A stretch of DNA of 63,483 nt, the filler included, from Hausera hauseri (lineage: Eukaryota): the NCBI GenBank assembly GCA_046269625.1. It is 11 parts of 11 records of this genome, joined end to end, with 100 filler letters (N's around TTAATTAATTAA, not from the genome) between each part and the next. Parts side by side here need not be neighbours in the genome. Positions count along the whole stretch, not along the records: positions 30,527 to 38,311 come from JBJURY010903535.1; 10 more parts are not named here. One strand, given 5' to 3'. The position numbers and the translations under genes are program-made. Positions 26,950 through 55,732 of this stretch are shown here, piece by piece (position 1 is the first letter of the stretch; each line of letters opens with the position of its first letter). The notes beneath the pieces were generated by a model. It was not told the DNA's origin. It made no database searches and was given only the letters and a program-made list of their open reading frames with translations.

Positions 26950-29900
26950 ATCTGATTTTATAAATTGCGCAGATACATCTTCTCGGTAAAACGCCAAAAG
27001 AGCATCGGGATTTTGAAATGCTCCCAGCCAATAACACGTCGTTTTATCCTTGTTAATTTGAAGAAGTTTTTCAATATGCTGATATTTGCTCAATAAAGAA
27101 CTCAGTCAATCAATGGTAGCATATCCTTCGTATCCTGTAGGATTTAAAAGAAACCTTTTCCATGGCAAAGGTACTTCGTTTTTCAAAAGTAAAATTATAA
27201 CAGATAAATCAGAATTAATCAATAAAGTGCTAAGATCGTTAGTAAGCACCTTCTTCATTTTCTGCACAAATGAAGAAACTTCCATAAAAATTTTCTGATA
27301 TCCCTTCAATTCTCGAATCATGAAAGCCGTGTAAAATGAACTGTTGTTTACTTTCTTTATCTTTTCTTGAATGTTGTCGACTGTAGACTTCGGAAGTTTA
27401 TTTAACAGACTCTTTGACAATTCAAATAATTCGTTTTCAATTTTTGATATATCCGTTTGAATATCAGATTGTCGTTTGCCATGGAAAGCATTTTTTATTT
27501 GAGCTATTTTATCTGTCACTGATCTTTCTGTATTAACTTTAGTCGAAGATGCAGATAACAAATGGCATGATTCAGAACTTTCAAATTGAAACGGAGAAAT
27601 AGCCCTGAAGGCTCGTTTGACATCGGCTACCTTAGGATTAGCTGCAAGTAGTATTGCCGGACAATGATATTTAATTTTTGGAAATTTAAATTCTTTCTTC
27701 ACGGAATTGGAAATCATCCGAGAATCTATGATAGCACTTATTGATGTCCGGTCCTGTCCAGATGTTATTATGCTGCCGTAGACTATGCCGGTCAGAAAAG
27801 ATCTTGTCATACTCCAGCAAACTGACGGTTTAGAATCGAACCAAGTGCAAATATTATTGGCGGCTTCCATAGCAAGCATGGGATTTGAAACGGATTCGAT
27901 AACACCAGCATTGTGGAAACCAATGGAAGGAAGTGCACACATGGATCGGATTATTGACATCAGTAGGCAAAGGTTATGGATAACTGGTAAAATATCTGGA
28001 GTCAGCTTGTCTAATTTACTTGCCACATTCCAACAGATTTTCGGTTGAATCATCAGCAGTTGGTCAATGGAAGATAAATCAATTGTAATAAAAATAAGAA
28101 GTCCCATATTAGCGTGAGAGTTTGACAATGGAGATTTAATGAATAAGTCTTCTTCGGAAGAGATTTCGTTTTTTAGTTGATTAAAGAATGTTTTCAAAGA
28201 GGTACTCAAAGAATCATTGACCTTAAAATTAAGAGACTTTGCTTGACTCCTTTTCTGAAGTTGTTGTAAAAGATCTGTTACATCACAATTATCGGTTTTG
28301 TATTTAATGAGTATTGCAGTGTTTTCAGTCGTCGAATCAAGCGCCAATTTGACATAAGATGTTGAAACACTTCCTCCAAATCTTAAATTGAGAGTTGACT
28401 GAATAAACCAGTAGCATGTCTGCATTATTCTGTCTGGTCGAATAACCCTCAGTAAACACAGCTTTTGAAAAGGCGTCAGTAAGATTTTAAACAATTTTTC
28501 GATCACATTTGACAACTCTGGATTGTCACTTTCAAACAGCAATTTCCATTGGTACTCTTTTGAATCCTTGTACATATTCTCAAGCATATCCTAGAAACAT
28601 GGAAATGCCGTGCAGAGAAGTTTAACATTAAATAACTGTTCCTCAGTTAACCAATCAAAAGGCTTTTTGGAACTTGAACTTTTACTTTCTGCTTGTTTCA
28701 TGAAATCCGGATTTATTTTTTGAACGACACTCAATGGAGATAATAAGAAATCGTCATAAATTGGGTCAATGGTAGAAAGTGTCTTTTGAATCTCAATAGA
28801 CAGCAACAGACAAAACGTGAATTTAAGATCATTATTCATGGATAACAGTGCATATTGACTAGTTTTCTTTGTCGGCTTGTCTATAATCGTTTTATTTGAT
28901 AGCCGATCCGAAGATTCAATCAACGAATCAAATAAACTAATGTATTTATCAAAGTCAATAAGATAATCTGGTTGAACTCTGTTCACTTTTGATGCCATCT
29001 GGAAACATGTAGCGAATCTGACAGCAATTGCTTGGTAGTTTTTGATGGATTTCTTGTTTGTTTCGTAGATAAATTCTTTTTGTTGGAAGTTAGTGCTTAT
29101 TTCTTCGTAAAGTTTCAAGTAACGAATAATTGTCCGGCAATGTTAGATGTGCTTAATACTTCTTACATTATTACTCAAATCATCAAGTGTCTGTTCTTCC
29201 AGCTTAAAAAGCTTTCTTTTCATACGATCCTTTTCTTCAAGGATATTTTGTCTTTCCAAATAAATATTCGGTTTAGCTTTCTCGATAAATCGACCCAAAA
29301 ATTCATTGACCAACACAGGCATTAACATATTAAATGAGACAAGAAACGTCTGAGAAATTAGAATATCAGGAACATCGCATGCCGGTGCACAAGTGTGTAA
29401 AAATAGTTGGAAATTTTGATTGCATGCCAACTCTTGTCCATTCGACAAAATTAATTTAAACGGACATTTTTCCTCAAAAAAATTATGTTTATTTCTCAGA
29501 ATCTGTCTCATAGTTCCATCGTGAATGAGTTGTTGAATATCACAGTCAGTTACAATGACGCAACTTCCATTTGCAAGACAATTTTCCAAATTGCTACTAA
29601 TTTCAGAATATGGAAATGACACAACATTGTAGTTAATCAAATATCTCTTTAGCCAACTGATTACACGTCTCGATGGATCGGATAACAGGAGCCAATTTCG
29701 AAGAAGGCTCTCGTTCATAATGAAACAGACATTATCAATTTCATCTTCGCTGTCGGGCAAATTGAAAGCTTCAAGTCGGGCTGTTTCCATAGGTGTATGA
29801 AGGAAATTGGCAATATCCATTCGGGTACACATTAATGTCTCCGATATTAATTCGCTCTTCTTTATGAGCTCAATACAATGCTGTAAGAATTGCGATTTCT

Positions 29901-30210
29901 GTTCATAGTTAAGTGGACCACAATAGGCTAGGTATGCGGATGAAATAAGACATTTTACGAAATTTGTGCGTTTGTCATGATACGTCTTTAAAAGAAATTT
30001 CCATTTCTTTTCCATGGGTTTAATGTTTTCTAATAACCATTGTCCTAATTCCAATCGTTCTGTCAAAGCCTTTAAATCCGTCTCAACAATTGATCGATCA
30101 CCAATTAGAGTATTATATTCGGTTTCCAGCTGTAGACATTCTTGCTTTAAATGTATCAATTCTTCAACATCCCACTTCTGACACCAATTTGTGGGTAGTG
30201 ATAAATCCAT
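26950..30210 (-). pseudogene. Divergent dynein heavy chain C-terminal part (stalk CC2, AAA5, AAA6, C-domain), intronless, three in-frame stops
   Basis: CLISSAYLAYCGP, WLLLSDP...SWLK, LENCLANG, NFQLFLHT, FQKLCLLRVIRPDR, GIVYGSIITSGQDR, VPLPW, YWLGAFQNP. Four ORFs in one frame, separated by TAA (29143), TAG (28591) and TGA (27106). Confidence 0.85.
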
Positions 30211-30526: not shown

Positions 30527-30619
30527 ATTACATTAAAATTTTAATTAATTAATTTTAATTAAATTTTTTAACCAATTCCAAATTGGAATCTTAATTTAAA
30601 TTTTAAAATGTTTCTGATT

Positions 30620-30780
30620 TAAATTTAGAACTTCTGTTCTCAATTATATCCTCACAGGAGCAAATTATAATCATCTCCATCAAGCGATAAAAGAAATACC
30701 TGGAAAAGAGGGAGAACCAATGGCTAGATTAACACCATTAGGTTGGACCTGCATTGGTTCAACAGTGACAAAACCATTTC
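30620..30780 (+). mobile_element. BEL/Pao retrotransposon fragment (end of the protease region)
   Basis: GKEGEPMARLTPLGWTCIG is the characteristic BEL/Pao motif upstream of RT. Confidence 0.65.
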
Positions 30781-31160
30781 AGAAAAAATCGAATTTTATT
30801 CGCTGCTTTTTCTTAAATAAAGCAGAACCGAAGGAAGAAAAAATAGATAAGTCATTTATCCAGAAATTTGATAAGAGGTCTGAACCCGTTGAACGTAAGA
30901 TTATTACATCACCAAACGATAATGATTTGAATTTTAATTAATAAGAAGTAAAATTCAATCAGGGTATTAAATTATTAGAAGACATCCCAGATGTTTCACA
31001 TAATAGAAGTAGTCCTCATACACCAGTCAAAGTTGTTCTGCAAAAAGAGAATAAAAACACTACTTTTTTCAAAATAGAAAATTTCGAGGATGAAGCTGTA
31101 AGAAATATTCGTGCGTTCGTTGAATTTAACGACAATTAAACAAATAACAATTTTCAAGTT

Positions 31161-32024
31161 TTGAATGTGTCGAGACAACTGCCGAAAAATATTGTAGGCA
31201 GCGTGAATTCACCAGGAATTGAAAGTAATTCAAAGGTATCATTGGAATATAATATTGTTGAAAGAGATAAAAGCTATGCAATGCATCGGTTAGCATCAGA
31301 AGGCGTGTTGGACAAATCTACATGTGAAAAAGAATCGAGTATCATCTCAATTGGTTGTATGGCGAATGGAGGTAAATGTAGCCCAGTAAAAAGATACAAT
31401 TTCAGTTTTACTAATTTTGGGATATTCGAAGGAAATAGACAGACAAATAATTTAGGCAATTCCAAAATTCCTAACAATGAGAATTATATGGAAATTGAAG
31501 ATAAAGATTTTAAATTAAACGATTTCAAAGTGGCGCGAAATGTAAAATACAAATTACCTGGTACATGTTTAAGTGAACAAGAACAAAATGATGGTATTTT
31601 GTCGAAAACCAGAAATGAAATAGCAATATCTAAGCCTCTTGATCAAATATCACATGTTGAAAATTCTAATTTTCGTGATGCATTTCTACAAAAATTGGAT
31701 TCAGAGAACAAGTTAATTGTAATTGACGTACAAATTACGAAAGACAATACAATGGAAAAGGAGAAGGAAACAGATGTTGGAGTAGTAACTAACCGTGATC
31801 TGAAGCCATGCTTATTGATTAAGGATTATATTAATGTGCCCAGACAGTCAAACGTGACAAACGATACACAGTTAGAAAGAACTGTTTTGGGGTGTAAAGA
31901 GTTTACAAGTGATATGGTTTTACTTGAAAATCATTATGTAATGTATAAAGACGAAATGCTTCAAACTCAGCATAAAACTCTAAATAAGGCAGAAAATAAT
32001 AATTTAAAAAAGACAAATGATTGA
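31161..32024 (+). CDS. Hydrophilic, apparently disordered ORF of unknown function, probably retroelement-derived
   Basis: 287-aa open frame in AT-rich DNA, K/E/N/S-rich, no recognisable motif; follows the BEL/Pao fragment. Confidence 0.3.
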   Translation: MNVSRQLPKNIVGSVNSPGIESNSKVSLEYNIVERDKSYAMHRLASEGVLDKSTCEKESSIISIGCMANGGKCSPVKRYNFSFTNFGIFEGNRQTNNLGNSKIPNNENYMEIEDKDFKLNDFKVARNVKYKLPGTCLSEQEQNDGILSKTRNEIAISKPLDQISHVENSNFRDAFLQKLDSENKLIVIDVQITKDNTMEKEKETDVGVVTNRDLKPCLLIKDYINVPRQSNVTNDTQLERTVLGCKEFTSDMVLLENHYVMYKDEMLQTQHKTLNKAENNNLKKTND

Positions 32025-32315
32025 TGCTACCAATCAGTTGAAGGAGAGTGTGAACGAAAAGGAAGAAAATTTTGTTTGTCAAGCAATCAATAAAAACTCA
32101 GACAAAACCAATATCAAACCAAATCGAAATGAGTTGGCAAACTACACGAAAATACTTTAGAAGGTAGCAGTATTATGTATTTAGAGGATAAATCAGAAGG
32201 CACGGGATTGCATAAAGAAATAAGTACCTCTCCGAAAAGTTCTTCACAAACTCAGGAATTTACTGACGAACCCGAAAGTATGAATTGTAAAGCTCCGATT
32301 GATAAAGGTGGGACT

Positions 32316-32498
32316 GATTTAGCTGAAGCATTACCGCATTTGGATGAAGTATTATCTGCTTTAGACACACTGAAACTTGCTGATATCACTAATGTTAAAA
32401 CTATGCAAAATCCACCTGGTGGGGTTAAACTCGTGATGGAAAACATTTATGTAATGAGAGAGAGAAAACCTGAAAGAGTTAATGATCTAAATAAACCC
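32316..32498 (+). pseudogene. Isolated axonemal dynein heavy chain stalk/MTBD fragment
   Basis: DLAEALPHLDEVLSALDTLKLADITNVKTMQNPPGGVKLVMENIYVMRERKPERV matches the DNAH3/7-type stalk. Confidence 0.8.
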
Positions 32499-35290
32499 TG
32501 TTATGGTACAGGGGTTACCTTTAAACTTTACTTCGTACCTACATATAAAATAAGACTCATGAAATCTCTTCTCAATTTATATATACATTCCTTTATGCCT
32601 CTTGTTGTCTATTCATATTACAAGTGTAAGTTTCCTTAGTTATTTCTCGAAATTTTTTTCATATATAGGGTAAAATACTTATTTCAATTGTATTATGCCT
32701 AATTTACTACACATAATTTATTAACGAACTATCCTTACTTAACTATTGGTCATTAATCTATTTCTAGTTTTGATCTCTGAAAAATGATCTGGATTCATCT
32801 ACTGAACCTTTCATGCATTCCTCACCCTATACAGATATGGGCGACCATTAAACGCAAACTATTTCCATTCGTAAATACAACATTTAGAAATTGTCCGGAA
32901 ACACGTTTACCTTCATTGTTTGTATGTTTTATCTGCCTTTAGCTGTTCTTTCTCTTACTTTCATAGTTTCACAATAAAACAACAAACACTTTTATTATTG
33001 CTGCAGGAGTATTCTTTGGGACGGTTCAATAAAGGGTACTCAACGTCTCATATCACCTTTCTATTGCATATTTTTCTAGCTTATACAAATGCTTCAAGTT
33101 AATTCCCATTTGTTAGGTTAATTTCCTGAAATTTCCATAATACTTAATTACGCCAGTTTACCAAATTTTAACTCAAATAACCAATTATCACTTTTCTATT
33201 GATAGACATCCTAGTTTCATTTTATTCATTAACCACAAGATCAATTCACTCTATTTATCACACATACTGTATAGTATTATACAATCTCTATATTTATATT
33301 ATTTTGTCAGCCGTTCTCATATACTATATAATATCCTAATTGCATTACAAACGATACGAAACCCAGTTAACATATTATATATATTATACATTAATTTATA
33401 ACTTGCTGTTTGATGTTAGACAGAATCTATTTGGTCTCATAGCAATGATCGTATAAGTATAATAGATCCGTAAATTATTCCACTCTTAATCTTGTCTTAA
33501 TAACATTGGATTATTCATTGTCATTTCATTATATTTAATACACATTACTTTATAATTTTATTCATTCTTTGGTACTATATTCAAATTACTTATTATCATT
33601 AAAATCATCAGGAAATAGTACTGACACTCAAGTAATATGGGTACACAATCTGCGTGAATATATATTTCATATACATTTGTTCTTAATATTACTCAAACAC
33701 AATCTGAGGTTGCTATTTCCTCCAATGGTTTCGACAATGATCAACACAGCATTGTTATACACTGAGGGAATCCATATAGTATTTCTCTAAAAGATTCAAT
33801 TATATAAAATTTATTTACTGTTGTTCCCAGTTAATTACAACCACATAAAATTCATCAAATATTTTACTCCTTCAATTTAAAGTACTAAGATTATACAAAC
33901 TTCAACAGTATAGATATAATAATGTATTAATCACTTAAAACTTCTAAGCCATACTTTCGCCCAAAATTTGTTTTATATCTATTATAAATTCTGATTACCT
34001 TGACCTTCATGATTACGCTCTATATTATCGTTGAATCATTGGAGTCTCCCCAATTTTATGAAACACATGATTGTTAATTCATGTTTGAACTCCGATGTAA
34101 CAATAATTGGTTCCAGAATAATTCTCAACACACTGGGTCCTCGCTCTATCAGTTCTGCCTTTGTGACCATATATATACATGCATCACCTCGTCTGATCTG
34201 AAACTCGGTCATATCATTCTGATCAGCTATCGATTGATCTCCGGCCAGCAGTCAATAACGGTTAATTTCATATGTAAAGTATTTATTATATAACAAATAT
34301 TACAAATAAAAACAAATATAAAAATTTGCGGCAAGGTTAATCTCTCTATATTTACAAATAAGGCTTACCATCTTGATCTAATGCTTGCTCTGTATGATTC
34401 ATAATTTGTTCATCCATCTTTAACGAGATTTGACCTGGAATACTTATATTCAAATAGTTCGAAGAATCAGTTGCGAATCGTAGGTTCAGATAATCAACTT
34501 TACTCTAGCCACTATTATTCTAAGACCAATAATGCTTTCTTCTATTTATTTCTTGGTTGCAGATAGTTTTGTATATCAAGATAAATTTTTTCCTTTTTCA
34601 ATGAATGTGACAAATTGTTGTAATTCTAAATTAGTTTATTACTATATCGTCACCAAATCATTACCTTTGGTAAAATGCCTTGTAGAAAAATGCTAAAATT
34701 TCTTCTTGTGTTAAAGTTTTCTCTCTTGTGTGTGTTATTGTCTGTTTTCACCTTCGGCTTATATACCAATCTGGGGTATTAAGCATTTCGCAAAATTTAT
34801 TTTGTAAATTGTTTCTTGTTTACCAAAATTGATTGCAAAGCAGTTTTTGTTTCATTTGTAAATTGGTTTTTGTTTTGATTTCGTTAGTAAATTCCTTCGC
34901 AAAATTTATTTTGTAAATTCAAATTGTGTAACCTTTGCTGAACACGTACTTATACTTTTATAACCTTGTGTTTCTGTTACTTTATTATCAACTTAGCCGC
35001 ATGGTTCACAATTCAATGCACATAACAACAGAATATAATATGACACCCATCACATCTGGGTTCACACCTTACTAAAGAGGAAGAATAAAACATATTTCAA
35101 GATAATATTTCAAATCAGTTATTAATCTCGAACAAAATTATTAAAACAAATATAATAAAGCAGAGCGTCGATGTCTGTTATATTGATCATCCGATAAATT
35201 TAATTATAAAATCCGATGTCTGTTATATTGATCAATCGATCCATACTGATCAATGATTAATCGATCTACATTTATCAATCAATCCTAACA
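32499..35290 (-). repeat. 3' LTR of a minus-strand LTR element; either ~2.8 kb (ending 32499) or 316 bp (ending 34975)
   Basis: Starts TGTTAG at 35290, directly after the PPT. The complementary TGTTA occurs at 34975 and at 32499, where dynein similarity stops abruptly. Non-coding, with short internal direct repeats. Confidence 0.55.
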
Positions 35291-36560
35291 TTTCTCCCCC
35301 TTTTGAAAAAGGATTTGGTCCTCCGGATCACTCTGGGTACTGGCATCAATAAAACTAAGGTTTCTGGGTCTGATAGTCAGTGTTGCATCATTTATCGGGT
35401 TCATCCAGTGGCATAGTCGTTGGGTACGGTCATCGTAGGTATAGGAGAAGTGATAGTAGACTGATGGTTGTCGACAGTATGGACATGAAATACCATTTTA
35501 AAAAGTCATTTGAAGAGCATATTCCGGGTTGATTGATTTGAGAGACTGAGAGCGAAGTTTGTTGAAGCAGGTTGCACACAGTTGGTGATTACATTGAAAT
35601 TGAACAACCGTTATTCTTTCAGTAAGACATATAGTACATTCGTAGGTAGGTAGTTGATCATAATAAAGAGATTGTAATGTTGCCCATAAATCAGGAGGAG
35701 CTAGATCAAATATAAGGTCAATTGGACATTTATTAAAGACTGGGAACCAGTCTTCTTGTAAGGATATTGGTAGTGGTGGACTATACGAACTAGTTGGTGT
35801 AGGTACTATTGTGGGTACCTGCACTGGCAATTCAGGCGATGATCTAGTAATTCGTTCAGGTTGATAACGTGGATGTGGTATTGAAGATGGCTGTCGTAGA
35901 AGAGTCATAACATTTATATGGGGTAAAGGTACTTGAAAGGTAATTGGTGGTGATCTAGTTATCGTAGAAGGATTAAATCGATGAATTGGAAATTCGATTC
36001 GGATTGATGACTGTTGCTCTAGTCGAAAGTATCTTGTTGGAAGTATTTGGGGAATTGGCGTATTGGTTATAGTAAGAAGAGCTCTTCTAGGATGGTGGAA
36101 ATATGAGTAAATAAATTGAGGGCAGAAATAACATATGCTACAGATTAAGTATTGATGGTGGGATTCTAGTTGATAGCAATGAGCACAGTACTCAGCATTA
36201 CAACAACTAAATTGATAGGCTATTCTATTAGGTTTTTGACATAAGCAACACATGTGTAATTGAAAATGTGGAATAGAGAAAGGGGTTGATACATTCCGGG
36301 TGTAATAGTAGGTAACGTGGTCAGATGGTTCAATAACTTCGAAGGTTTGGGCATTTAGTAATGATTGATCAGCGTGGGATGGATATGCATCATGTCGGAT
36401 GCAATATTTGATTTCATATGTACATACGGGACAATAAGGTGTAGGATGAGCTTGTGATCGTATTCGATCTATACAAAATGAACAAACCATATGCAGGCAC
36501 GGTGTTAATCTGTACACCTCGCTGAGGATTACTCTGCAGAACAATTATTCTGGAAGATCT
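35285..36560 (-). pseudogene. Multi-RING-finger protein, last ORF of the LTR element
   Basis: PCLHMVCSFC...CPVC, CCLC...CCNAEYCAHC...CSIC and CTIC...CNHQLCATC. After one in-frame TAA (35498) the frame continues ISCPYCRQ...PEDQILFQKGEKC* through the PPT. Confidence 0.8.
35291..35304 (-). promoter_or_regulatory. Polypurine tract (AAAAGGGGGAGAAA)
   Basis: Pure purine run immediately 5' of TGTTAG on the minus strand. Confidence 0.8.
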
Positions 36561-36574
36561 AAAAATAAGTAGAA

Positions 36575-37612
36575 TTAACTAAAATTTAACTCAATTACAT
36601 TATGATTTTTATTCTCAGCATTTTCAATGTACAATGAGTTTGACAAAAGGTTAAACAATTGTCTAAGTAGATGGGCTTGTACTAATGGTGAAGTATATGT
36701 AGGAATAGTGATGGTATGTAGTAATTGTTCACTTAGACGAATTATGAGCATTGGGTCTGAGGAAAAACTTGTAGCGATAGGGTGGCGACTAAGATTGAAG
36801 AAACCATTAGTAAGGGTAGTAGGCAGTTTCAGTGAACATAATAGTAAGTCAAGTTGTGTCGTTATAATGAATTTATATTTTAACATATCTTGTATGTAGG
36901 GTAAAAAATCATCGTTGTCTATTTTATTTAGGGTAAGATCATCAGTTATACCTGTAAAAGGTGTTCTCCAATCTACGACTTTATGTCGGGGGTACATTTG
37001 CTGCTGTAATAATATTTCACCTTTAAAGTCTAATATGGCGATATCAATAATGGTTTGGTTGATGGTTGTTAGGTTAGGTTGAGTGGTAACATACGTATAG
37101 GCTACAAAGGCGAATAGGGGTTCTAAATCAGGTATAGTTAATCCTTCTGGTGTCGAGGAATATTTATTTATTGATAGAATTGATCTAGGTATTTGATTCA
37201 AATGATCATAACTCTCATCATGAGTGTATACGAGTTTTGGTTGGGTTATTTCCACAGCAAATAGACAATTGTTTGAAGAAGAAATAGTAAAAGATAACAA
37301 TTCAACAGGGGGAATTGTGATAATTGCACTAGAATCGTTAAATAGTTCATAATCAATATCAAGAATAGGATCCTCGAAGTTGGCATTGACAGTTAATTTG
37401 CCAGAAATGAGATGAATGGCAATAATATCGAATTTCTTCTGTTTATCGGTAAGAATTAGTTGGGATAATGAATTGGTAACGCTAGCCGATGTTTGCTGTA
37501 TATACATCTGTCTGGGATAAAGTTGTAATTTCTCAGATTTTAAATCATTTGGGATAGCTGTCTGGTTGGAAAAATTATGATGGAATCGATTTGCACTCAC
37601 ATAGGACGCCAT
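36575..37612 (-). CDS. Unknown N-terminal domain plus catalytically degenerate DEDDh exonuclease fold (REX4/ISG20-like)
   Basis: IAILDFKGEILL...P...VVDWRTPFTGI...IQDMLKYKFII...LSEQLL follows VSIVN..GEVLY...P...VTDYRT.VSGI...LLKGRILV...LAEELL. The expected acidic and His catalytic residues are absent. Confidence 0.7.
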   Translation of the reverse strand: MASYVSANRFHHNFSNQTAIPNDLKSEKLQLYPRQMYIQQTSASVTNSLSQLILTDKQKKFDIIAIHLISGKLTVNANFEDPILDIDYELFNDSSAIITIPPVELLSFTISSSNNCLFAVEITQPKLVYTHDESYDHLNQIPRSILSINKYSSTPEGLTIPDLEPLFAFVAYTYVTTQPNLTTINQTIIDIAILDFKGEILLQQQMYPRHKVVDWRTPFTGITDDLTLNKIDNDDFLPYIQDMLKYKFIITTQLDLLLCSLKLPTTLTNGFFNLSRHPIATSFSSDPMLIIRLSEQLLHTITIPTYTSPLVQAHLLRQLFNLLSNSLYIENAENKNHNVIELNFS

Positions 37613-37708
37613 TGCGTCATAAAAATGTTGCGAATCAATATAAGGCTCTATTTTTAGTCTTAATACAAAACATAATGATAAAAATTTATTAACATTAAAT
37701 GAATATCA

Positions 37709-38311
37709 TCAGACAGAATAACAATACAACATTGAATATAGATTATATACAGTGATTAAAGGATATAATATGTCAAAATTCATACATATACGACAGGATA
37801 AATCAATAGACGGATGATGGAAGTATTCAAGAACAAAAGTTATAACAAAATATATACACGCGAGTAGAGAGTTAGTTAAGTATGTAATGTATATTTGTAA
37901 TACTATCTCTCGGCGCATTATGACCAGTAATCGTTCGCGTTCGTAGGGACTGGTCATAGGATCGTGCATCAGGATGTCATTGATGGTCAGGTTTCGATAA
38001 TTATGAGTCTCTGGTCGAATATCTGGTCGCCGCATCAGGATAGGGATTGCCCCATAGGTTCGGGTTAAAAGCGCAGTTATAAGAGGAGTCTCTTCGTATA
38101 ATCCATGAGCATAATTTACATCGAATAAATAAGTTCCATTGTCGAATTTTTTATTTAGGAAGGTTTCCAATAGTAGGAATCGTTTGAAGACTATTGCATG
38201 ATGTAAAGGTGTACTACGTAATTGGGTTTGGAAAATAGCTTGAAATACTTTGTTGTCGTAGGCATAATCGAATATCAGGATTGCCAAGTTATGTCGACCA
38301 TGTCGTATGGC
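37709..38311 (-). CDS. Ankyrin-repeat protein (5' partial)
   Basis: AIRHG, STPLHHAI, DVN....EETPLITAL, ILMRRPDI. Near-identical to the C-terminal part of 62767-63390. Confidence 0.8.
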   Translation of the reverse strand, partial: AIRHGRHNLAILIFDYAYDNKVFQAIFQTQLRSTPLHHAIVFKRFLLLETFLNKKFDNGTYLFDVNYAHGLYEETPLITALLTRTYGAIPILMRRPDIRPETHNYRNLTINDILMHDPMTSPYERERLLVIMRREIVLQIYITYLTNSLLACIYFVITFVLEYFHHPSIDLSCRICMNFDILYPLITVYNLYSMLYCYSV

Positions 38312-38411: not shown

Positions 38412-38413
38412 AT

Positions 38414-41190
38414 AGAGTTGACGTAAAAGTCACTAAAGCCCAGACATTACTATCCACTCTAGAAGTAAACCCGAAATTAAAGAGAGCAACTCGGAGTCTA
38501 GAACGTACGAAGGATAAAATTAGCTTAGTAACGATTTACCGACTTAGAGAAAAACCGATTAGTGATCGAAGTAATGTCGATTTAGAAATATTGGGTATAG
38601 TCCTAACAGATATCCCTCCCTTAATGGAGATGATTAAACTTACGTTCGCCGTACCTAGACGATATACGAATTTAGAGAATCGTATTAAATTAGTAAATAA
38701 AATACGAGCACAGATTTATGAGTTGAGGAACCGTATTATTTTTCCAAGTCACGAGGATACTCAATATGTAATAAAAGCTTGTATCGTAGAGTTAGACGAG
38801 TACAAGGACGAGTTTAGTTATGTCGGACGAGTTATGAATTTCCTAAAAGGACCGGATGATGCGTTAGAAGATGACTACAAGATGCTAGATAAAGCCATAA
38901 TGGCGAAACCGGTAATCGCAAATCAATTATCGGAATGGTCCGAACTAGTAATGCGACTAACCAGATTGTTAGAAGATTGTAAAACAGAATTTCCGCAAAG
39001 CGATCCAACAGTGAAGAAGCAATTAGAGGAAAGTGCGCACAATTTAGCCACGTTGCGAATAGAAATAGACATCCGTACTCTATTTGAAGCGCTACGACAA
39101 CTAAAATTTATGGAACAGGAACGAGAAGCATCGACAATGGATGAAATCTACAAATTGATCGAAGAAACAAATTTTACGGAGAAACGGAATATGATTCACG
39201 ACGTAAATTAAAGTTACGGATTGTCCGGCTAGACGGGATTCAATATATAACCGGGAAACCAATCGACGAAATTTCTGTACCAGATATTGAAATCTTGGAT
39301 ATTTGCGCCGGATATCGAGATATGTTAACAGATGCAATAAGGTTTCTACACAAACCTAAAGAATGGATGGCCGGATCAGACCAGAACCTCCATACCAAGT
39401 TGATAGAAATCGGAAACGACCCACATTTTAGCTTTCAGGAGCACAAGTTTTTAGAGAAATTGTTGGATGCAATGGACCAGGATTCAAAGGTTATAAATGG
39501 GTTGTATGAGCTAGCCTATCTATTAGTGGAAATGGCAGAAATCAGTGATGAACAGATGAGGCAGTTGATGCCCAAATTACAGAAAGTAGAAGAAACATGT
39601 ATCAAAACGAAACAAAGGGAGACAAGGTTAGATGAAATAACAAAAGAGCTAGAAGTCTATCGGAACAAATATGCTCTTACCGAATCAGAGATTAAGAATA
39701 AACGAGAATTTGTACAAAGATGGCAAAAGGATGTGATTCTTGAATTGACATATTGTCACCAAAAAGGACTTATCGACTCTAACGAATTCGGTGAATTACT
39801 GAAAATGATCCAGTATGCCTGTGGGAATGGAAGAGGATTCCGAACTACGCAAATGAAAGAAATACAACCCAGATTAAAGGAAATTCGGGAAAACATTCAT
39901 AGAGCCAATACAACGTTAGTGGACTACCGATTTCCAGATGTCGGAAACGAACCCGAATGGGATGCATACTTCGATGAGATACTCGCCGGGAAGGCTACGA
40001 CTCCAGTACAACTGAACGAAATAAAAACAGGTCCGCAAAACAGAAGGTTCAACGTGGAGATGCTACTGGATTCAGCGCTAACTGAAAAGGATTTCATTGA
40101 GTTAATTAACGTAAATATTACTGAAAATAAACTTCGACAACTTATCCCTACTCTAACTAAATTATCTAGCGAAAGCACGATCTATTGTACGGTGCCGAAA
40201 CTTTTGATAAGGAAGTACGCTAAAATTTTGAGGGCTAAACCTGCGATGACGATAAAAGTAATGGTGTCATCCGAATGGATGGACGAAACAGAATGCGAGT
40301 TGCCTACATATTCCTACGTAAAGGACGTAAGAGAATGGCTAGTAGACAATAGCGGGACAAATAAGTTAAATTACAGATTTTACTTTAAAAGTAGAATATT
40401 AGATGACTTGGAACAATTGAGAGACGTCGGGATTATTCCCGACGAAACAAATCGGATAGTGGCAGTAATAGTTAACGAACAGACAAAAGAAGAAGCTACA
40501 CGTAAAACTAAATCAGAAAAATGCGAAGGACAAATCACGGGAGTCCGAGACGCCGCCCTGTATTTTGAGTATTTACAAACAGACGAAGATAAGGAACAAT
40601 ACGATATAAACTTAGTACCACTTAGTGAATCAATCACTAAAGGTTTGAGACCGAAACGCCCAGTAGGTCGGCCTAGAAAAGTGCGAGAAGAAATAGATTA
40701 CAACGGAGAGTTAATTAGAGAATTGAGGCAGATGTCGATCCCAACTCTTAGCACAGATAATGAAGAATTAAGCGAATTAATGAAAAATTTAATACGAATT
40801 GTGAATTATTCTAGTTTCCGAGGAGATATGTTGGATGATAAAGAAAAGATCATTTTCGATGCACCCAAAATGATTCGAAACTTGCGTTTTAAACTATCGA
40901 AAAGCAATTTAACTGATGAATCGGTAATGGAAAAGATCATGGTGGAAAACACGAATGAAGAATTGAGAAAAGTATTGCTATACTTAGCTATCAAAATAAA
41001 TCCTAATCAAGAGAGTGAAATCAATCGGGCTATAAGCTTAGCGTGGAGAGCAGCAAAAAGAATGCCTTGCAAAGTAAATTGGGTAAGACTATTTGACAAG
41101 GAAGAGGACAAACGAAATAATAATAAACTCGACGATATGTTGCGTAACCTGACAACATCAGACGTTGGAGGTCGAAAAAACGAATCAAAT
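38414..41190 (+). pseudogene. Large polyprotein region: helical/coiled-coil repeats, ubiquitin-like domain, AT-hook; one frameshift near 39205
   Basis: Open from the contig start. Ubl at 40246-40473 (VKDVREWL...YRFYFKSRILDDLEQLRDVGI), AT-hook RPVGRPRK at ~40657-40680. Continues in frame into the glycoprotein. Confidence 0.65.
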
Positions 41191-43000
41191 TTGCTAATAA
41201 GCTTTCTCACCTTAATAATGCTAATAAAGCACATAAGCGCGATAACCGTATATGATTGTGATAAGGTTAAGTTAGGACAGAGATATTCCTTAATTGATTT
41301 AGAAGTATGCGAGGATGCCAGACCGCACAAACTAGAAACAATATAGAAAAGTTACTTCCTGTATCAACAATAAGAAATGATATCGTTGGATGGAATGGAA
41401 TGTATGCTGAAAAGATCGCGTAGTATTTTTCACTGTGGGTTGATTCATGGACACTCATCTATAATTAAACCAATGACTCCATTAATTCCAATGAACTTAG
41501 AACGACAACACTGCAAACAAGCTAGAGAAAGAGGAAGAATACAATGGGATAGCATGCAATTGGAAATGTAACCCGGAAAAATAATTAGAGCATACAAAGT
41601 AGTAGCTGGAAGGTTGGATATGTATAACGGATATTGTAATGAAGCAGAGTACTATACCGGAAAAGGTTTAGAAACGAAAGTTGTGGTTGTGGATTTCTAT
41701 GAATCAGAAATGCAATCACAGAAGGTGATGTTTCATAGCGTCACTAAATTATACACGGAGAATCAAAAATGTCATTTACAAGACGGAATATATGCTTTTA
41801 GGAGCTCAGTTGCAATATGGGAACCTCCTTCTGCGAGAAATTGTAATTTTATTAAAATCAAAGAACTTAAGTTCAACGAGACTACAGGGACGAGATATGT
41901 GGACAAATCAGAAACTAACTCAAGAACACGCGAAGATGTATCGGAACACCCTAACCTACTATATTAATCTCGGATCCACGTGGACTAAAATTCATAAAAA
42001 AGAGATGATGACCCGTTGTGATGTAGTAATGTTCGCCACAAACTATGAAGAATTCTTTGTGGCTGAAAGGGAAATAAACGCAAAAACTTACAAATTGGAA
42101 ACGCAAGATGTTCGAATCGACGATTACCTGAAAAATAGAGACGATTACTTCTACTACAAAGGACAAGTTGGAATAACGGAATTACACCACAAAATGATAA
42201 TGGATGACTATAAATTGGATACAGAAATCATGAGAACTAAAATGGCTCTTATATATGCAAACCCAGAATTAGCTTCTCCAATAATTTCCATGAGAAAAGG
42301 AATTTTCGGTCGGGTCACAGGCCAAGTACTGCTAACATATGAATGTGAAAAGAGAGAAGTTCTTATCAACGTAGAAGAAAAACGTTGTATCCAGGAACTC
42401 CCTGTTATCAATCAGAATATTCCGAGATTATCTACGCCGTTGACGACAGTGTTGTTGGATAACGTGACACAACCAACCATTCTGAAAGATTGTAAGACGA
42501 GCTTAGGAGAACCAATGTTTAGACGTAGTGAAACAAATTGGGTTAGTTTACCTAATGGAGGTATTACTGCCGCTCCCAACAAGCTAACAGGGATAAATCT
42601 TGCAAAAGGAATTACAGACGATAAATTTCAAGACACCTCGTCAAAAGATATATATAGGCCGAGGGTAATCGAGGCCTTTAGACAATTTCTTGCCTTTCCA
42701 CGACAACGAACACATGAGCTAAATTGAGCTATGGCGTCGGTAGTAGACGACACCTGATATCAGGCTAAATGGAAATCATTACTTGGCGTAAACCATTATC
42801 AGAGGGTGACAACCGAAATACTGTATAAAATTTGGGGAAGATTTTTAATTTTTGGACAAGCCGCATCAGGATTTTTAGCAATGCAGTAATAAACGGATAC
42901 GAAGTATTTACGCTAACCGGATTTTCATGTAAAATTCTGACTGCAATCATAACGCCTTTTGGAAAATTTTTAAAAGCATACGAAGAGAGTAAATGGAAAT
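41191..43000 (+). pseudogene. Chuvirus (Jingchuvirales)-like envelope glycoprotein, disrupted
   Basis: Signal, then VYDC...SLIDLEVC, C...RSIFHCG..GHSS, W.PP....C, MAL...NP......KGIFGRVTGQVLLTYEC, CIQELPV......TP.T.VL, IWGRFLIFGQAASG and INGY....GFS. These follow the order I recall for chuviral G proteins. Several in-frame stops and at least two frameshifts. Confidence 0.8.
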
Positions 43001-43174
43001 CGGACGTAGAACGCCATGTAGGTTATTATAATTGTAAACGAAGAAGGAGACCGATATTCATACGGAAGCGGGAGTCTACAAAACCGAATATACGAAGAAA
43101 TAATTCAGATGATGACGAGCCTAAGGGAGGAGAAGCATTCTCAGGGATGAATAGACATAAGATGTACTCGGTCG

Positions 43175-43274: not shown

Positions 43275-44966
43275 CACAACCCATTGTGGTTTTACCACTT
43301 CATCAACATGTTTGTTTCTGTCAATAGGGCTGACTCCTTCCGGTACAGACATATGGGTGTGGGCTACACAACCGGAACATACGTCGGATGCATAACGGAA
43401 TCGAATGACACATTCTCATGCAGTGTGTATGACTGGACGAAGAGCGACATCACTGTGCCCGGCAGCAAATGTACGTATCTTACGAGGACATACTATCAAT
43501 CGAATTACTCGCTGATTAGTGAGATGCGTGGTACTGGAGACTTCAACATTACTAACAATACCTGGTATACAGTGGTAAGCAAATCATTGGGTGGAAGCAT
43601 TCGATGGGTGCCAACGCATCTTATTGGATCTTTGACAGTGACAGGAGTGAGTTCTTGTGTGTACCTGAATGACACGTTTATTGGTGTAGTCACTCTCACT
43701 TTCGATATCAACGCTATCCAACAATTCATGTCTGCTCATACCAGCGCGTCGGTAGATGTGTCATTTTTGGTTGATGCCCTAGGCTGGATTGTTGCAACCA
43801 CGCACCATGCGCCGTACGCCACCATGACAATAATACCAGCCAATGACACGCGGCCAGTTCCGTCAAACTGTATACGTTCGCATGAGAGTAATGGGCCTGT
43901 ATACCAATACTGTCGCGCCTCAGTATTTGCGTTTCCATATGCACCACTGAACGAGCTGGCTTTGCATTATTCTAATTACACGATGAATGGCACTGATGAC
44001 AACTCTGTGCTACTTCGATTAGGTGGTAATGATTTCTTTGTCTTTGTCAATGACATGCTTCAACTTGACGAGACAATGCCGCGGTGGAAGGTGATTGTGT
44101 TCATTCCGTCAACGAACGTGGATGGTGGGCTGACGTCTGGTAAGGCTGTGCCGATCTCCATTGTGTGTGCTTGTGTTGTTGTCATTGTTGTTGTTTTTGC
44201 ACTGCTTGCGTTCGTACTAACACCTCGAGGTCGGGACAATAAAAATGCTCCGAAGGATGAATCAGCACCCTTCACAATTGTGTTCACTGGTGTGGAGCAC
44301 AGCACTGAGCTATGGACTGAGGTTCCTGATTCGATGGCTGCCGCCATTAAACTACATCATTCTATAATCCGTGAGCTGATTGTGAAGCATCACGGGTACG
44401 AGGTGAAGACGATTGGTGACTCATTCATGATTGCATTTGTGCATGCTGCTGATGCTGTGTTGTTTGCTGCAGATCTTCAGACGACTTTCCTTGCTGATGA
44501 GCGATGGGACGTGTTGATAGATGTTATGTACAGAAGGTTTGCAATGGAGGGTAAGAAGGCATGTGTTGATGGTTCAAATGCGCTTGATGCCTTGACAGCC
44601 AAACTGAATATTGAGGAGTATGCATCGGGATGGCATGGGTTGCGTGTGTGTGTTGGGGTGAACTGTGGATTTGGTGAGGTCAAGAAGGATGTGACGACAC
44701 AAGGCTACGACTACTATGGTCCTGTTGTGAACACTGCCGCTCGTGTTGAGGCGATTGCTCACGGTGGGCAGGTGTTGATCACTCGAGCTGTGAAGGAGCA
44801 CGTTGTCGGAAGCACAAAGAATGTCGAGGCTTTTGACATAATCAATTCTGCAATGTCGCTTGGATCCGTTGCCCTTCGTGGTGTTCCTGAACCTGTGGAT
44901 GTTTACCAGTTGGACATCATCTCTGGACGAGTGTTTCCACCATTAGTGACTGTTACCGCATTCTGA
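43275..44966 (+). CDS. Kinetoplastid-type receptor adenylate cyclase with dCache-like ectodomain (5' partial)
   Basis: APKD..APFTIVFTGVEHSTELW, YEVKTIGDSFMIA, WHGLRVCVG, YDYYGPVVNTAARVE..AHGGQVL. TM precedes the cyclase domain. Intronless and higher in GC than the other contigs. Confidence 0.9.
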   Translation, partial: HNPLWFYHFINMFVSVNRADSFRYRHMGVGYTTGTYVGCITESNDTFSCSVYDWTKSDITVPGSKCTYLTRTYYQSNYSLISEMRGTGDFNITNNTWYTVVSKSLGGSIRWVPTHLIGSLTVTGVSSCVYLNDTFIGVVTLTFDINAIQQFMSAHTSASVDVSFLVDALGWIVATTHHAPYATMTIIPANDTRPVPSNCIRSHESNGPVYQYCRASVFAFPYAPLNELALHYSNYTMNGTDDNSVLLRLGGNDFFVFVNDMLQLDETMPRWKVIVFIPSTNVDGGLTSGKAVPISIVCACVVVIVVVFALLAFVLTPRGRDNKNAPKDESAPFTIVFTGVEHSTELWTEVPDSMAAAIKLHHSIIRELIVKHHGYEVKTIGDSFMIAFVHAADAVLFAADLQTTFLADERWDVLIDVMYRRFAMEGKKACVDGSNALDALTAKLNIEEYASGWHGLRVCVGVNCGFGEVKKDVTTQGYDYYGPVVNTAARVEAIAHGGQVLITRAVKEHVVGSTKNVEAFDIINSAMSLGSVALRGVPEPVDVYQLDIISGRVFPPLVTVTAF

Positions 44967-46247
44967 GGATGTGGCTATTTGGCTGATTGCTATTATGTCC
45001 TTGCGAATTGAATTTATTGCGAGACGTGCAACAGCGTCTTCGGTCGTGGACGGACCGGGGATACCCTGGTGCCGCGCGGAGGTAAAAATATTGCTAGTAT
45101 TTATTAGATGTGTTTTACTGGCTTGACGGTATGGGCAGCACATGTTGATTAGTATATACTGATTATAATGCGACGAGTGATGTCATGGTTGGTTATTGCT
45201 CAGTGACCGTATTACATTGATTTATTAGGGGTGCGTCTTTTGTCGAGGCGCGCTGTGGGGAATGACCATCTGCTGTCCAAGTGGGGCATTATGAGTGCGA
45301 GGATAGAGACTTGCTAGGCATACTATATTCGTCGTCTGGGGTTGTTGTGTATAATGAGTATATGAATAACGAGTGAGCTATTATGTTACATTGAAGTTAG
45401 AGTAATTTAGGAACCATGAAGGTTATCATATGAGGTATTTGTGCTGCTCTTGAGATATTTGTGTCTTATGCAGCTGATTCAGGTACTTTTTTAGGAACAG
45501 TATTACATTACTGTGATTAGCTGAAACTTGTTTTTGTTTAGAGGGATCTGTTTTTTTCCAGCTGCTTTTATGATGTACACTTACCAGCATCCTCTGGTGA
45601 TGCTAAGGTAGTTCAAGAATATCCAGATGAGCTTTTGTATGGGAGTGGTTGTGTTCTGACAGGAGATGGCTGCATATCATGTGAGAACCGTATGCTTGTC
45701 ATTATGTGTTGTGGTGACTAAATTCCATTCTGGCATGTATAATCTTTGCTTCTCCACTATGTTATCACTTATGATTCCTTTGCTTGTTTTGTTATTTAAT
45801 TTACTCTACAAGTGGATCACTGCATATAGCACGTCACTAGTTGAATACCAGACATCTCTTATTCATCTTTATGCTTGCCCTGTGTGGTTTCATGCTTGGA
45901 CACACGTTGTTATAGTTGACTTGCTGTGTGTTTATGGACATGAGCACATCTACAGGTAAGTGGTGTGGCACCCGTTTTGAGGGATTGTGCCTATGACAGC
46001 TGTTTTCAGCCTGGCGTGAGCAACACATCGACTGTGTCTCTGAGCTACATACGGTCAAAGCTGCACCTGAATGCTGACATGCAAGTGTGTTTGCTCCCGT
46101 GCATTGACTAACTACAGATACGTCCAAACGGTGTTCGTTGTTGTGACTGTACAGGACAGTCAGTGTGTGAGATGCGATGCCATGAAAACACAGAAGCGCA
46201 TTACTAGGTCAGCGGCCTGAATACGTGCACATCTGATGCGTTGTCAG

Positions 46248-47564
46248 ATGAAAGAGAAGACAGCTTTTGAGTTGTCCGTCTGAAAAGTGAGACTCAATAC
46301 TGTATTGGCCGTGAGTGTCTGTGCGTTGCTTATTGCTGTCAGTTCCCTGGTTCCCATGATCATTACCCTAGACACATTCACTGTGACTATGCAACCTTCG
46401 ATGTCAAGAGGCGCTTATGCAACATCGAGTGTGTTTCTCACGTACATAGAATATTATTTTTTGTTCCATCCCTTTCAATTTTTAACCAGTCGGGCTAACT
46501 CACTGTCGAGTCCGCCGCATCAACAGGAATGGCGAGACCCCGCACACAACCCATTGTGGTTTTACCACTTCATCAACATGTTTGTTTCTGCCAATAGGGC
46601 TGACTCCTTCCGGTACAGCCATATGGGTGTGGGCTACACAACCGGAACATACGTCGGATGCATAACGGAATCGAATGACACATTCTCATGTAGTGTGTAT
46701 GACTGGACGAACAGCGACATCACTGTGCCCGGCAGCAAATGTACGTATCTTACGAGGACATACTATCAGTCGAATTACTCGCTGATTAGTGAGGTGCGTG
46801 GTACTGGAGACTTCAACATTACTAACAATACCTGGTATACAGTGGTAAGCAAATCATTGAGTGGAAGCACTCGATGGATGCCATTGTATCTCATTGGACA
46901 TTTTGCGGTTGTGGGAGTGAGTGCTGGTGTGTACCTTGATGACACGTTTACTGGCGTACTCACTCTCAGTTTCGATATCAACGCTATCCGACAATTTATG
47001 TCTGCTCATAACAGCGCGTCAGTCGCTGTGTCATTTTTGGTTGATGCCCTAGGCTGGATTATTGCAACCACGCACCATGCGCCGCACGCCACCATGACAA
47101 TAATACCAGCCGATGTCACGCAGCCAGTTCAGTCAAACTGTATACGTTCGCATGAGAGTAATGGGCCTGTATACCAATACTGTCGCGCCTCAGTATTTAC
47201 GTTTCCATATGCACCACTGAACGAGCTGGCTTTACATTATTCTAATTATATGAGGAATGGCACTGGTGACAACTCTGTGCTACTTCGATTAGGTGGTAAT
47301 GATTTTTTTGTCTTTGTCAATGACATGCGTCAAGTTGACGACGCAATGCCGCGGTGGAAGATGATTGTGTTCATTCCGTCAACGAACGTGGATGGTGGGC
47401 TGACGTCTGGTAAGGTTGTGCCGATCTCCATTGTGTGTGCTTGTGTCGTTGTTATTGTTGTTATCATCGTCGTCATGGTAACTGGACGTGTTGGACCGCC
47501 AACTAGTGTCCAACCCCTTAGCCCGCTTCCAAGCAGGATGGGTGTTGCTATGCGGGACTCCTGA
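46248..47564 (+). pseudogene. Paralogous dCache receptor, truncated after the second TM (no cyclase domain)
   Basis: Highly similar to 43275-44190 from 46544 to ~47460. The ATG at 46248 is followed by an in-frame TGA at 46281. N-terminal TM present. Confidence 0.8.
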
Positions 47565-48044
47565 GGCAAATGGCGATGAAAATGTCTGAAGTAGCTGCTG
47601 AGTCTGTTCAGCTTTCTTAACACGAAATGGGTCTTCAAAGTCCTTGTTGGACAGCGCGACCCGTGCGCTGCTGTGGTGAGGCTGGCTGTTATACTGCGAG
47701 CTCTGTGTGCTCGGAGACGAGGATGAAATAGTCGACGCACCTGCAGGATAACCCAGGCCGTGGGCTGGAAGTTTATCAAACGAACGCCGAATGTAGCAAT
47801 GGGAACTGGCCTGCCGCTCTCCTGTAGACAGCAAAGGCGTGGGGGAACCTGGGATATCTTCAGTGTCTTTTGTAGAAGACTGGTGTTGTTGATGATGCTG
47901 CGAGGGATTGCGTTTCATAATGACCTACACTTCAGACTGGCACCTGATGATGATAATAAAAACATTTTCCTAACTGAAAACCTCAGGTAATTCATATTTT
48001 CGTAAAGGTAAATTGAAAACAAATGTTAAAAAAGGATAACAAAC

Positions 48045-48308
48045 CTTCATGCTATAGGCTCTGCGATTGGACGGCTGTACTATAACCTTGACCCCTGACT
48101 TCACAAGTTTCTTAATCTGTTGAGGGGAAAGTGGTGCTCGCCGCTCCCAAACATTCACTGTTTCTCTCCGGACAGCCATAACTGGTTGGTCGCTGGCCCT
48201 GCGTATATGAATACTGGGAAATGCTGACATAATTTTTCCTTTAAGGCAAGCCTTGCTAAATATTGGCAGCACATTCTGTTTAACTGGTGCATAAAGCTGG
48301 GAAACCAT
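48045..48308 (-). CDS. AASS: Alpha-aminoadipic semialdehyde synthase, first coding exon
   Basis: Mitochondrial-type presequence, then [20 protein letters not shown]...[17 protein letters not shown], then a GT donor at 48043-48044. Confidence 0.9.
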
Positions 48309-55620: not shown

Positions 55621-55732
55621 ACAATAAGACCAACACTAATAAGTTCACACAAAACAGTAGGTCAAACTCACCAACTACAAAAATCTGATTTCGCCGCTAG
55701 GACACACGGCAAGTCCTAGCAAAGGCAACAAC

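Follow-up and report, generated by a model that had tools for sequence, protein, structure and literature searches.

A probable LTR-retroelement 3' end carrying ankyrin, catalytically degenerate exonuclease-like and three-RING genes in Hausera hauseri

General features of the cassette

The window, that is the whole 63,483 nucleotide stretch of Hausera hauseri DNA (GCA_046269625.1) analysed here, contains on one of its parts (JBJURY010903535.1, positions 30,527-38,311) three minus-strand frames arranged head to tail in the order ankyrin, exonuclease-like and RING, followed by a U-tract, a polypurine tract (PPT) and the sequence TGTTA at 35290 (Table 1). The three co-oriented ORFs described in the earlier note were recovered, at 38311-37709 (ankyrin), 37612-36575 (exonuclease-like) and 36544-35285 (RING), and their description as intronless is based on colinearity with homologues over the full length. 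The gaps between them measure tens of bases, and all three lie in the same reading frame, for which the prior is about 1 in 9. Base shuffling of the cassette never gave a stop-free stretch of at least 345 codons (0/2000), 200 codons being reached in 2 of 2000 shuffles. The G/C skew of the coding strand is -0.29; the values for Gypsy pol stretches elsewhere in the window are -0.31 and -0.19, and the CBP and dynein genes of the window, unlike the cassette, range from -0.01 to +0.13. The copy is decaying, with at least three breaks: a stop that splits RING 3, and two absent initiators. The contig stops inside the ankyrin ORF, and no gag, pol, second LTR, PBS or TSD was found on it.

Table 1. Features of the cassette, its flank and the second ankyrin locus (positions in the window)
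Feature	Position	Strand	Remarks
Ankyrin-repeat ORF	37709-38311	-	5' end cut by contig edge; Pfam Ank E 0.018-0.097 for the piece
Cupin-like barrel and ISG20/REX4-type DEDDh fold	36575-37651	-	Predicted; catalytic residues absent
T-rich splice-acceptor-like site	36559-36575	-	Inferred; in gap before RING ORF; one of four sites that a simple filter retained between 32300 and 38311
Three-RING ORF	35285-36544	-	zf-C3HC4 E 3.1e-7; tail passes through PPT
RING 1	~36538-36422	-	7/8 ligands, likewise in intact homologue P0010
RING 2	~36247-36131	-	All-Cys variant, judged by eye; not covered by a separate Pfam match
RING 3	~35638-35474	-	C3HC4 in 3/3 lineages; split by stop in window copy
U-tract	35310-35306	-	Sequence
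Polypurine tract	35304-35291	-	14 purines; P0010, P0011 and P0014 have the same peptide at their ends
Putative 3' LTR	33111-35290	-	Start at 35290 well supported; far-end candidates 33111, 33414, 32499 or nearer
U3-like direct repeats in putative LTR	35169-35240; 34787-34919	-	Sequence
TATA-like site in putative LTR	34765	-	Sequence
AATAAA sites in putative LTR	34640, 34550, 34287	-	Sequence
Splice-donor-like site in putative LTR	34368	-	Sequence
Axonemal dynein heavy-chain stalk fragment (flank)	32304-32486	+	DNAH12 E 1.8e-16
Decayed co-oriented frames upstream of second ankyrin copy	60631-62809	+	No usable Pfam, PHROG or Atlas match
Second ankyrin copy, truncated	62764-63390	+	Window's last contig; Ank_2 E 1e-8

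The three-RING frame and its junction with the putative LTR

The terminal frame is 64% identical to P0010 and 59% to P0011, and 26 of the 27 Cys columns of the RING alignment show no variation in the rows extending over them. Three Cys clusters agree with the three RING-like fingers described earlier, with the reservations that the first lacks one ligand and the third is broken; a Pro-rich linker separates RING 2 from RING 3. The initiator Met of the homologues is absent at the aligned position 36544, and an in-frame stop (35500-35498) lies inside RING 3, so that what runs into the PPT in the window copy is a remnant of just 70 codons. Of the earlier claim that the last ORF runs through the PPT and stops two codons into the LTR, the PPT, the TGTTA and the end of the frame therefore stand, the ORF itself being interrupted by this stop. 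Read in the direction of the ORFs, the PPT is followed directly by TGTTA, the second codon past the PPT is the stop of the frame, and the G/C skew changes sign at the PPT-TG junction.

The far end of the putative LTR was sought among 154 CA-ending positions, where the terminal inverted match is 7 nt at 33111, 6 nt at 33414 and 5 nt at 32499, the last being tied with six others. The boundary originally placed at 32499 thus ranks behind 33111 and 33414, and the dynein match of the flank may run weakly across it: this match ends firmly at 32486, and a weak extension to about 32552 adds approximately 2 bits (empirical p approximately 0.014-0.02). Given this extension and the poor rank of the inverted match, we no longer read 32499 as the point of a clean insertion into dynein. 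The stretch after 32499 by itself had no PDB match. A 9/10 hairpin, noted by eye, pairs 32492-32501 with 32508-32517 and straddles 32499. No second copy of the putative LTR occurs within the window, and a six-frame Pfam scan of 32499-35290 revealed no families.

The exonuclease-like protein

The initiator of the homologues aligns at 37651, where the window copy has no Met, and the first in-frame ATG is at 37612. The window protein alone gave no Pfam match, and two of the four close members matched PF00929 weakly (best E 0.0048). A profile that takes in four active relatives matched ISG20L2 [E 5.9e-19]. A fold model based on eight sequences was of middling quality (pLDDT 63.8, pTM 0.51; with four sequences the pLDDT was 35.6 and the model unusable), and it suggests that a cupin-like barrel (approximately residues 1-125) is fused to an ISG20/REX4-type DEDDh fold. 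The predicted cupin-like part has structural matches [Foldseek E 1.7e-5; VIA Z 9.7, rmsd 2.6, 92 aligned], and the predicted exonuclease part resembles ISG20 [Z 13.8, rmsd 3.4, 146 aligned]. A DnaQ-like fold with the ExoI-III layout is supported. Profile match, predicted structure and structural comparison together back the REX4/ISG20-like fold that had been proposed; Foldseek against viral models returned generic cupin and exonuclease matches only. The N-terminal domain shows one invariant His (H67, in 8/8 rows), and a full metal-binding His/Glu motif of the cupin type was not seen by eye. A profile built from this domain alone, as it occurs in the active relatives, finds all four dead copies and none of four control proteins.

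None of the five catalytic residues (D, E, D, H, D) is kept in the window protein or in P0001, P0002 and P0003, whereas all five are kept in the distant relatives P0004, P0006, P0007 and P0008, which share both domains. The exonuclease earlier called dead is consequently dead across its whole close family (4/4 copies) and not in the window copy alone. In the tree a branch of length 2.43 with 100/100 support splits off the dead clade, whose tips measure 0.13-0.26, and the four active relatives adjoin it.

The ankyrin frame and its second copy

The ankyrin ORF is 78% identical to P0012, which matches Ank_2 at E 1.2e-14; the final 60 or so codons of the former are hydrophobic and are missing from P0012 as called. 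The two ankyrin copies of the window share 81% nucleotide identity over 238 nt, with a dN/dS of 0.098 (79 codons; Fisher p 6e-12). This comparison across copies, which the earlier note had proposed, was run for ankyrin and indicates an accessory gene under selection. The frames upstream of the second copy gave no usable Pfam, PHROG or Atlas match (Atlas: 61705-62310). At a distance of 2.2 kb upstream, and on the same strand as the second copy, there is a reverse transcriptase fragment [PF00078; E 3e-8]; it is truncated and may be unrelated.

Relatives of the cassette

The diverged copies comprise three exonuclease and two RING clusters at 57-64% identity, from one species or more. P0010, P0014 and P0011 share an identical nine-residue end coded by the PPT and TG, and the 10-20 residues preceding it vary, with indels. 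Exonuclease P0001 and RING P0010 both have a longest contig of 19467, and exonuclease P0002 and RING P0011 both have one of 3286; P0004, P0006 and P0009 come from contigs of 15-25 kb. Since the RING lineages match the contig sizes of the exonuclease homologues, the exonuclease-RING-PPT end is likely a family trait, the linkage resting on equal contig sizes and not on DNA that was seen. No matching RING partner of P0003 was among the homologues returned. The search for ankyrin homologues returned one (contig 1695) and none with a contig of 19467 or 3286, and the linkage of ankyrin to the cassette is thus seen in this window only.

Nature of the element

We consider it likely that the cassette is the 3' end of an LTR retroelement, in the form of a module of accessory genes; such an end with accessory genes, as first proposed and here in an element of several lineages, is backed by the common PPT-coded peptide, the shared contig sizes and a dN/dS of 0.10. 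The U-tract, the PPT and the TG are hallmarks of LTR elements, and they argue against an endogenous DNA virus, a Polinton or a Penelope/Terminon-type piece, explanations which, together with a former polyprotein read through stops, we hold to be very improbable. Viruses commonly carry ankyrin, RING and DEDD genes, but no relative was found in the viral contigs scanned, nor in the prokaryote genomes scanned. The sole match among metagenome contigs, locus L001, is a bacterial gene with one common 8-residue word and was discarded. The shared reading frame would suit a polyprotein, but each of the seven exonuclease homologues aligned in A2 begins at an aligned Met of its own. Terminons carry DEDDy ORFs, according to the available part of a review (PMC6431247); against such an origin, Rfam over 32300-38311 gave a single chance-level match and no ribozyme. 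That the same PPT-TG peptide ends three lineages at 59-64% identity also makes it improbable that we are dealing with a host cluster of paralogous genes (ankyrin, pseudo-nuclease and RING), in or beside which an LTR landed and whose PPT-like tail is incidental. Some host genes of the window do have long exons, no pol is linked to the cassette and a low dN/dS fits host paralogues too; set against this are the short gaps between the ORFs, a strand skew resembling that of the retroelements of the window, and the decayed or truncated state of the window copies.

The same element might instead carry its cargo to replicate itself (through handling of RNA 3' ends, assembly of particles or Gag turnover) or to the benefit of the host cell, which we think unlikely. 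Purifying selection is silent on the target of these proteins. 3'-end processing has been proposed for exonuclease ORF3s in the available text of PMC5408684, but the catalytic residues for it are lost in all four close copies; and the RING-BIR (anti-apoptotic) region of Burro1 protects stem cells, as related second-hand in PMC13465017, but neither BIR nor any Bcl-2 family was listed when the cassette proteins and their homologues were scanned with Pfam.

Proposed role of the cassette proteins

On balance we favour, as a whole, an LTR-element 3' end in which an ankyrin, catalytically dead exonuclease-fold and three-RING module protects the element from host silencing. The counter-defence role itself, in which host silencing would be the target of an E3 ligase, an adaptor and a protein that binds nucleic acid without cutting it, is proposed tentatively. 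An ancestral active cupin-DEDDh gene may have been inactivated once and then conserved, which would leave the exonuclease-like protein with a role that has no need of catalysis. Its targets might be the 3' ends of RNA or DNA, or else the partners of REX4/ISG20/SDN-type nucleases of the host; by binding them it could shield element transcripts or cDNA. The ankyrin protein could be a targeting adaptor, and the RING protein could recruit E2 enzymes, leading to removal of a host factor for restriction or cell death. Spliced subgenomic RNAs that begin in the 5' LTR might serve to express the accessory genes, the donor-like site at 34368 and acceptors near 37660 and 36559 being candidates for the junctions. 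A complex prediction for P0010 with P0001 (score 0.00, run without alignments) gives no evidence either way.

We know of few counter-defence genes described in animal LTR retrotransposons. It is conceivable, if rather doubtful, that a cupin-fused REX4/ISG20-type nuclease entered a retroelement lineage by capture, became a conserved pseudo-enzyme through a single inactivation and now forms, with the ankyrin adaptor and the triple-RING ligase, a dedicated, virus-like counter-defence kit by which the small-RNA or antiviral nuclease machinery of the host is blocked and destroyed. Capture and inactivation followed by conservation would imply selection for a non-catalytic job.

Comparison with known systems

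The predicted fold of the middle protein is that of the DEDDh exonucleases ISG20, ISG20L2, REX4 and SDN1; unlike the ISG20/REX4 type, it has other residues at all five catalytic positions and, by prediction, a cupin-like domain in addition. Maelstrom (MAEL), a catalytically degenerate DEDD-fold protein, also resembles it in fold [Z 8.2], and acts in the piRNA pathway without the DEDD set. Ankyrin and RING are paired in the E3 ligases XB3/XBAT and in Mind bomb, which has the ankyrin + RING architecture; these are host genes with both domains in one chain. A match to PF24921 (ankyrin-RING E3 ligases XB3/XBAT) at E 1.5e-5 is below its cut-off. PML and Plex9 combine RING with a DEDDh exonuclease, and PML restricts retroelements (PMC10123124, available part); the likeness lies in the joint occurrence of a RING and a DEDDh-type domain, which in PML serves the control of retroelements, but these are host genes with the domains in one chain.

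The bdelloid rotifer LTR retrotransposons Juno and Vesta, as described in the available text of PMC5408684, resemble the cassette in having an exonuclease-fold accessory gene (ORF3) near the 3' end, such ORF3s being typically expressed from spliced messages. Theirs is an RNase D-like DEDDy enzyme with intact catalytic residues, whereas that of the cassette is REX4/ISG20-like DEDDh, keeps none, has a predicted cupin-like N-terminal domain and is flanked by an ankyrin gene and a RING gene. The main text of that paper contains none of the terms RING, ankyrin, DEDDh and cupin. Burro, a giant planarian Gypsy element, likewise combines ankyrin repeats with RING-type, ubiquitin-pathway domains (review PMC6431247, in part). 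Its motifs lie inside an ORF1 polyprotein with MATH, BIR, Bcl-2 and env, unlike the separate 3' ORFs abutting the PPT, and the available section lists no exonuclease for it, whereas the cassette has an exonuclease-fold ORF; the comparison is by description, setting a gag-env-pol polyprotein of approximately 5,000 aa in an element of over 30 kb against 3 kb of internal cassette sequence. A contig with a Burro-like env adjoins in the window, unlinked and of opposite strand skew to the cassette.

Gypsy, accessory ORF, ankyrin, RING and exonuclease all appear together in a review, and invertebrate LTR elements with a nuclease, ankyrin or RING cargo have been described before, which makes the general theme less surprising. 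No title on retrotransposon-borne ISG20 or REX4 genes was among the matches listed, and the literature searched contained neither a cupin + DEDDh architecture nor a paper joining retrotransposon, cupin and DEDDh. What appears new is the predicted cupin + DEDDh architecture of the middle protein, with catalytic loss in its close copies as against retention in distant relatives.

Anatomy of the cassette

As the earlier note had described, the ankyrin, exonuclease-like and RING frames follow one another on the minus strand (Table); all three share one reading frame. They constitute a real, selected 3' accessory module, likely of an LTR retroelement family. A stop-free stretch of 345 codons was reached in none of 2000 shuffles of the cassette. 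The window copy is decaying: RING 3 is split by an in-frame stop at 35500-35498, and the initiator methionine of the homologues is missing at the aligned positions 37651 (exonuclease-like) and 36544 (RING). Reading of the last ORF through the polypurine tract (PPT), also claimed in that note, holds for the family, whereas in the window copy only a 70-codon remnant does so. Because the window consists of 11 unrelated contigs joined by N-linkers, contigs adjoining that of the cassette are not its genomic neighbours; on the others are several Gypsy fragments, pieces of axonemal dynein and a gene resembling CBP, which makes an animal host likely.

Table. Features of the cassette and of other parts of the window
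Feature	Position	Strand	Remarks
Ankyrin frame	38311-37709	-	Open at contig edge
Exonuclease-like frame	37612-36575	-	345 codons
RING frame	36544-35285	-	
PPT	35304-35291		14 purines
Exon-like pieces inside putative LTR	34420-34010	-	Donor and acceptor sites; weakly BTB-like by eye; no Pfam match in six frames
Second ankyrin copy	63148-63385	+	81% identical over 238 nt
Tandem array	7086-11242		4.2 kb; 12-base unit, about 347 copies; yields long K/H/T-rich open frames
Integrase end (rve_3, E 0.0047), then frames with signal-peptide-like and transmembrane-like stretches	11343-15362	-	No Pfam family for the latter frames; a further retroelement, bearing env-like or cargo genes
Dynein heavy-chain frame set	27106-30210	-	Divergent, intron-poor; AAA_9 (E 1.2e-25), Dynein_C; possibly an LTR-mediated retrocopy
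PBS-like 18-mer	30186-30169	-	After CA and 3 bases; leads directly into dynein set; presumably a tRNA-Leu match
Short frame	30618-30941	+	No Pfam match; motif we take to be BEL/Pao-like pol
Long coiled-coil-rich frames into Monjiviricetes-type fusion glycoprotein	38412-43174	+	PF24664, E 1.8e-17 and 6.5e-6; broken by stops and frameshifts; contig separate from that of cassette
Adenylate cyclase genes	43308-47564; 47970-48308	+; -	Nearest match trypanosome GRESAG4 (E 1.1e-51); the two are 94% alike over 918 nt; same contig has what we take to be an aminoadipic-semialdehyde-synthase-like exon; co-sampled kinetoplastid, chimeric contig or gene transfer
Decayed Gypsy-type gag/pol elements	48442-53535; 53636-58776	-; +	64% alike over 1.7 kb
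dUTPase-like frame (by eye)	51955-52317		Upstream of RT in the first of these elements

Boundaries of the LTR

At the LTR start a T-tract, the 14 purines and TGTTA (35290) succeed one another. Runs of at least 12 purines followed by TG number five in the window on both strands, this one included, so that such a run alone is modest evidence. On the coding strand, all 15 windows that begin within the cassette, as far as 35511, have a negative G/C skew; at the junction it changes to +0.26. Beyond 35290 there are AATAAA sites and a TATA-like site as well as direct repeats. The relatives provide a stronger test than these signals of the window itself. A nine-residue C-terminal peptide, encoded by the U-tract, PPT and TG, is common to the window and the RING homologues P0010 (64%), P0014 (a member of the P0010 cluster) and P0011 (59%); only one of its positions differs among copies, conservatively, whereas the stretch preceding it is variable and has indels. 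The PPT and the TGTTA start of the putative LTR, as proposed earlier, are well supported.

The far end had been placed at 32499. Of the 154 positions that end in CA, 33111 has the longest inverted match to the LTR start (7 nt) and 33414 the next (6 nt); that at 32499 is of 5 nt, tied with six others. The flanking sequence encodes part of a dynein stalk (DNAH12, E 1.8e-16), and its match is firm as far as 32486. Carrying the alignment on, with gaps, to about 32552 raises the score by some 2 bits (61.8 vs 59.7). The anchored score of this extension was reached by 70/5102 and 286/14592 null positions, and the extension weakly disfavours a boundary at 32499. The LTR may be some 2.2 or 2.8 kb long, or shorter.

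Linkage and selection

When the whole cassette was used as one query, with stops read as X, 5 of 1954 candidates were returned: two RING, two exonuclease-like and one ankyrin protein. The longest contig listed is 19467 bases for both P0001 (exonuclease-like) and P0010, and 3286 for both P0002 (exonuclease-like) and P0011. These matching lengths, together with the PPT-coded ends, suggest that two or more further lineages also have exonuclease, RING and PPT end linked to one another. For the ankyrin homologue P0012 the longest contig is 1695, and ankyrin linkage to the cassette is seen in the window only.

The two ankyrin copies of the window differ by a dS of 1.01 and a dN of 0.098 over 79 codons (Fisher p 6e-12), and 26 of 27 Cys columns of the RING alignment are invariant among the rows covering them. 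The second ankyrin copy is preceded by 2.2 kb of co-oriented, decayed frames for which no family match was usable, which makes it likely that the cargo is longer than three genes; before them, on the same strand, an RT fragment (PF00078, E 3e-8), perhaps unrelated, breaks off near 60550. At -0.29, the strand skew of the cassette resembles that of Gypsy pol stretches elsewhere in the window (-0.31, -0.19) and differs from those of host genes and of the contig bearing env (+0.13), a likeness that is suggestive only.

The middle protein

As sole query the exonuclease-like protein had no Pfam match and no PDB sequence match. Three close relatives (57-63%) were found among 1515 candidates. HMMER, run in full over 1.84 billion representatives, gave six matches at E 0.001 or better: one close relative, four that are distant but full-length, and a tandem-exonuclease protein. 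The four distant relatives score above the PF00929 cut-off and retain all of D, E, D, H and D; the four close copies, including that of the window, keep none of the five, and "dead exonuclease" was an apt description. The REX4/ISG20-like fold is likewise supported, an 8-row profile matching ISG20L2 (E 5.9e-19), ISG20 and SDN1. The AlphaFold model (pLDDT 63.8) splits into residues 1-125, which match cupins (Foldseek E 1.7e-5; Z 9.7, rmsd 2.6, 92 aligned), and 157-330, which match ISG20 (Z 13.8, rmsd 3.4, 146 aligned), a predicted cupin plus DEDDh architecture. A profile of the N-terminal part of the active relatives alone recovered 4/4 dead copies (E 1e-9 to 9e-4, Z 100000) and 0/4 control proteins. 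P0004, P0006, P0007, P0008 and P0009 form a catalytically intact cupin-like plus DEDDh family on contigs of 1-25 kb (ENA, Logan, JGI).

In a small, midpoint-rooted exonuclease-domain tree of 12 rows, drawn up without P0009 (nearly identical to P0006), a 100/100 branch of length 2.43 separates the dead copies from the rest; their tips measure 0.13-0.26. The long branch and short tips fit one inactivation followed by renewed constraint; given the size and rooting of the tree, the order of events is inferred. The predicted cupin-pseudonuclease of the cassette is undescribed in the literature searched.

Proposed function and known systems

The genes may be expressed from spliced subgenomic RNAs, with a donor-like site downstream of the TATA-like site, at 34368, and an acceptor-like site at 36559. 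Most simply, the conserved dead nuclease would bind, but not cut, the targets of the active enzyme, either partner proteins or nucleic-acid 3' ends. RING 3 forms a complete C3HC4 finger in each of three lineages and would recruit an E2, and the ankyrin repeats would choose the target. Our tentative reading, somewhat short of an even chance, is that the cassette would shield the element from silencing or restriction by the host; we rank it above the alternatives of a part in the replication of the element itself and of a benefit to the host.

The cassette would work like the accessory cargo of the bdelloid Juno and Vesta elements, whose ORF3s are stated to be typically expressed from spliced messages (PMC5408684). 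It does not belong with these ORF3s, its protein being a dead DEDDh. By analogy it would also resemble the accessory cargo of planarian Burro elements, and the layout of the fusion-glycoprotein contig resembles that of Burro, where env lies inside the polyprotein (PMC6431247).
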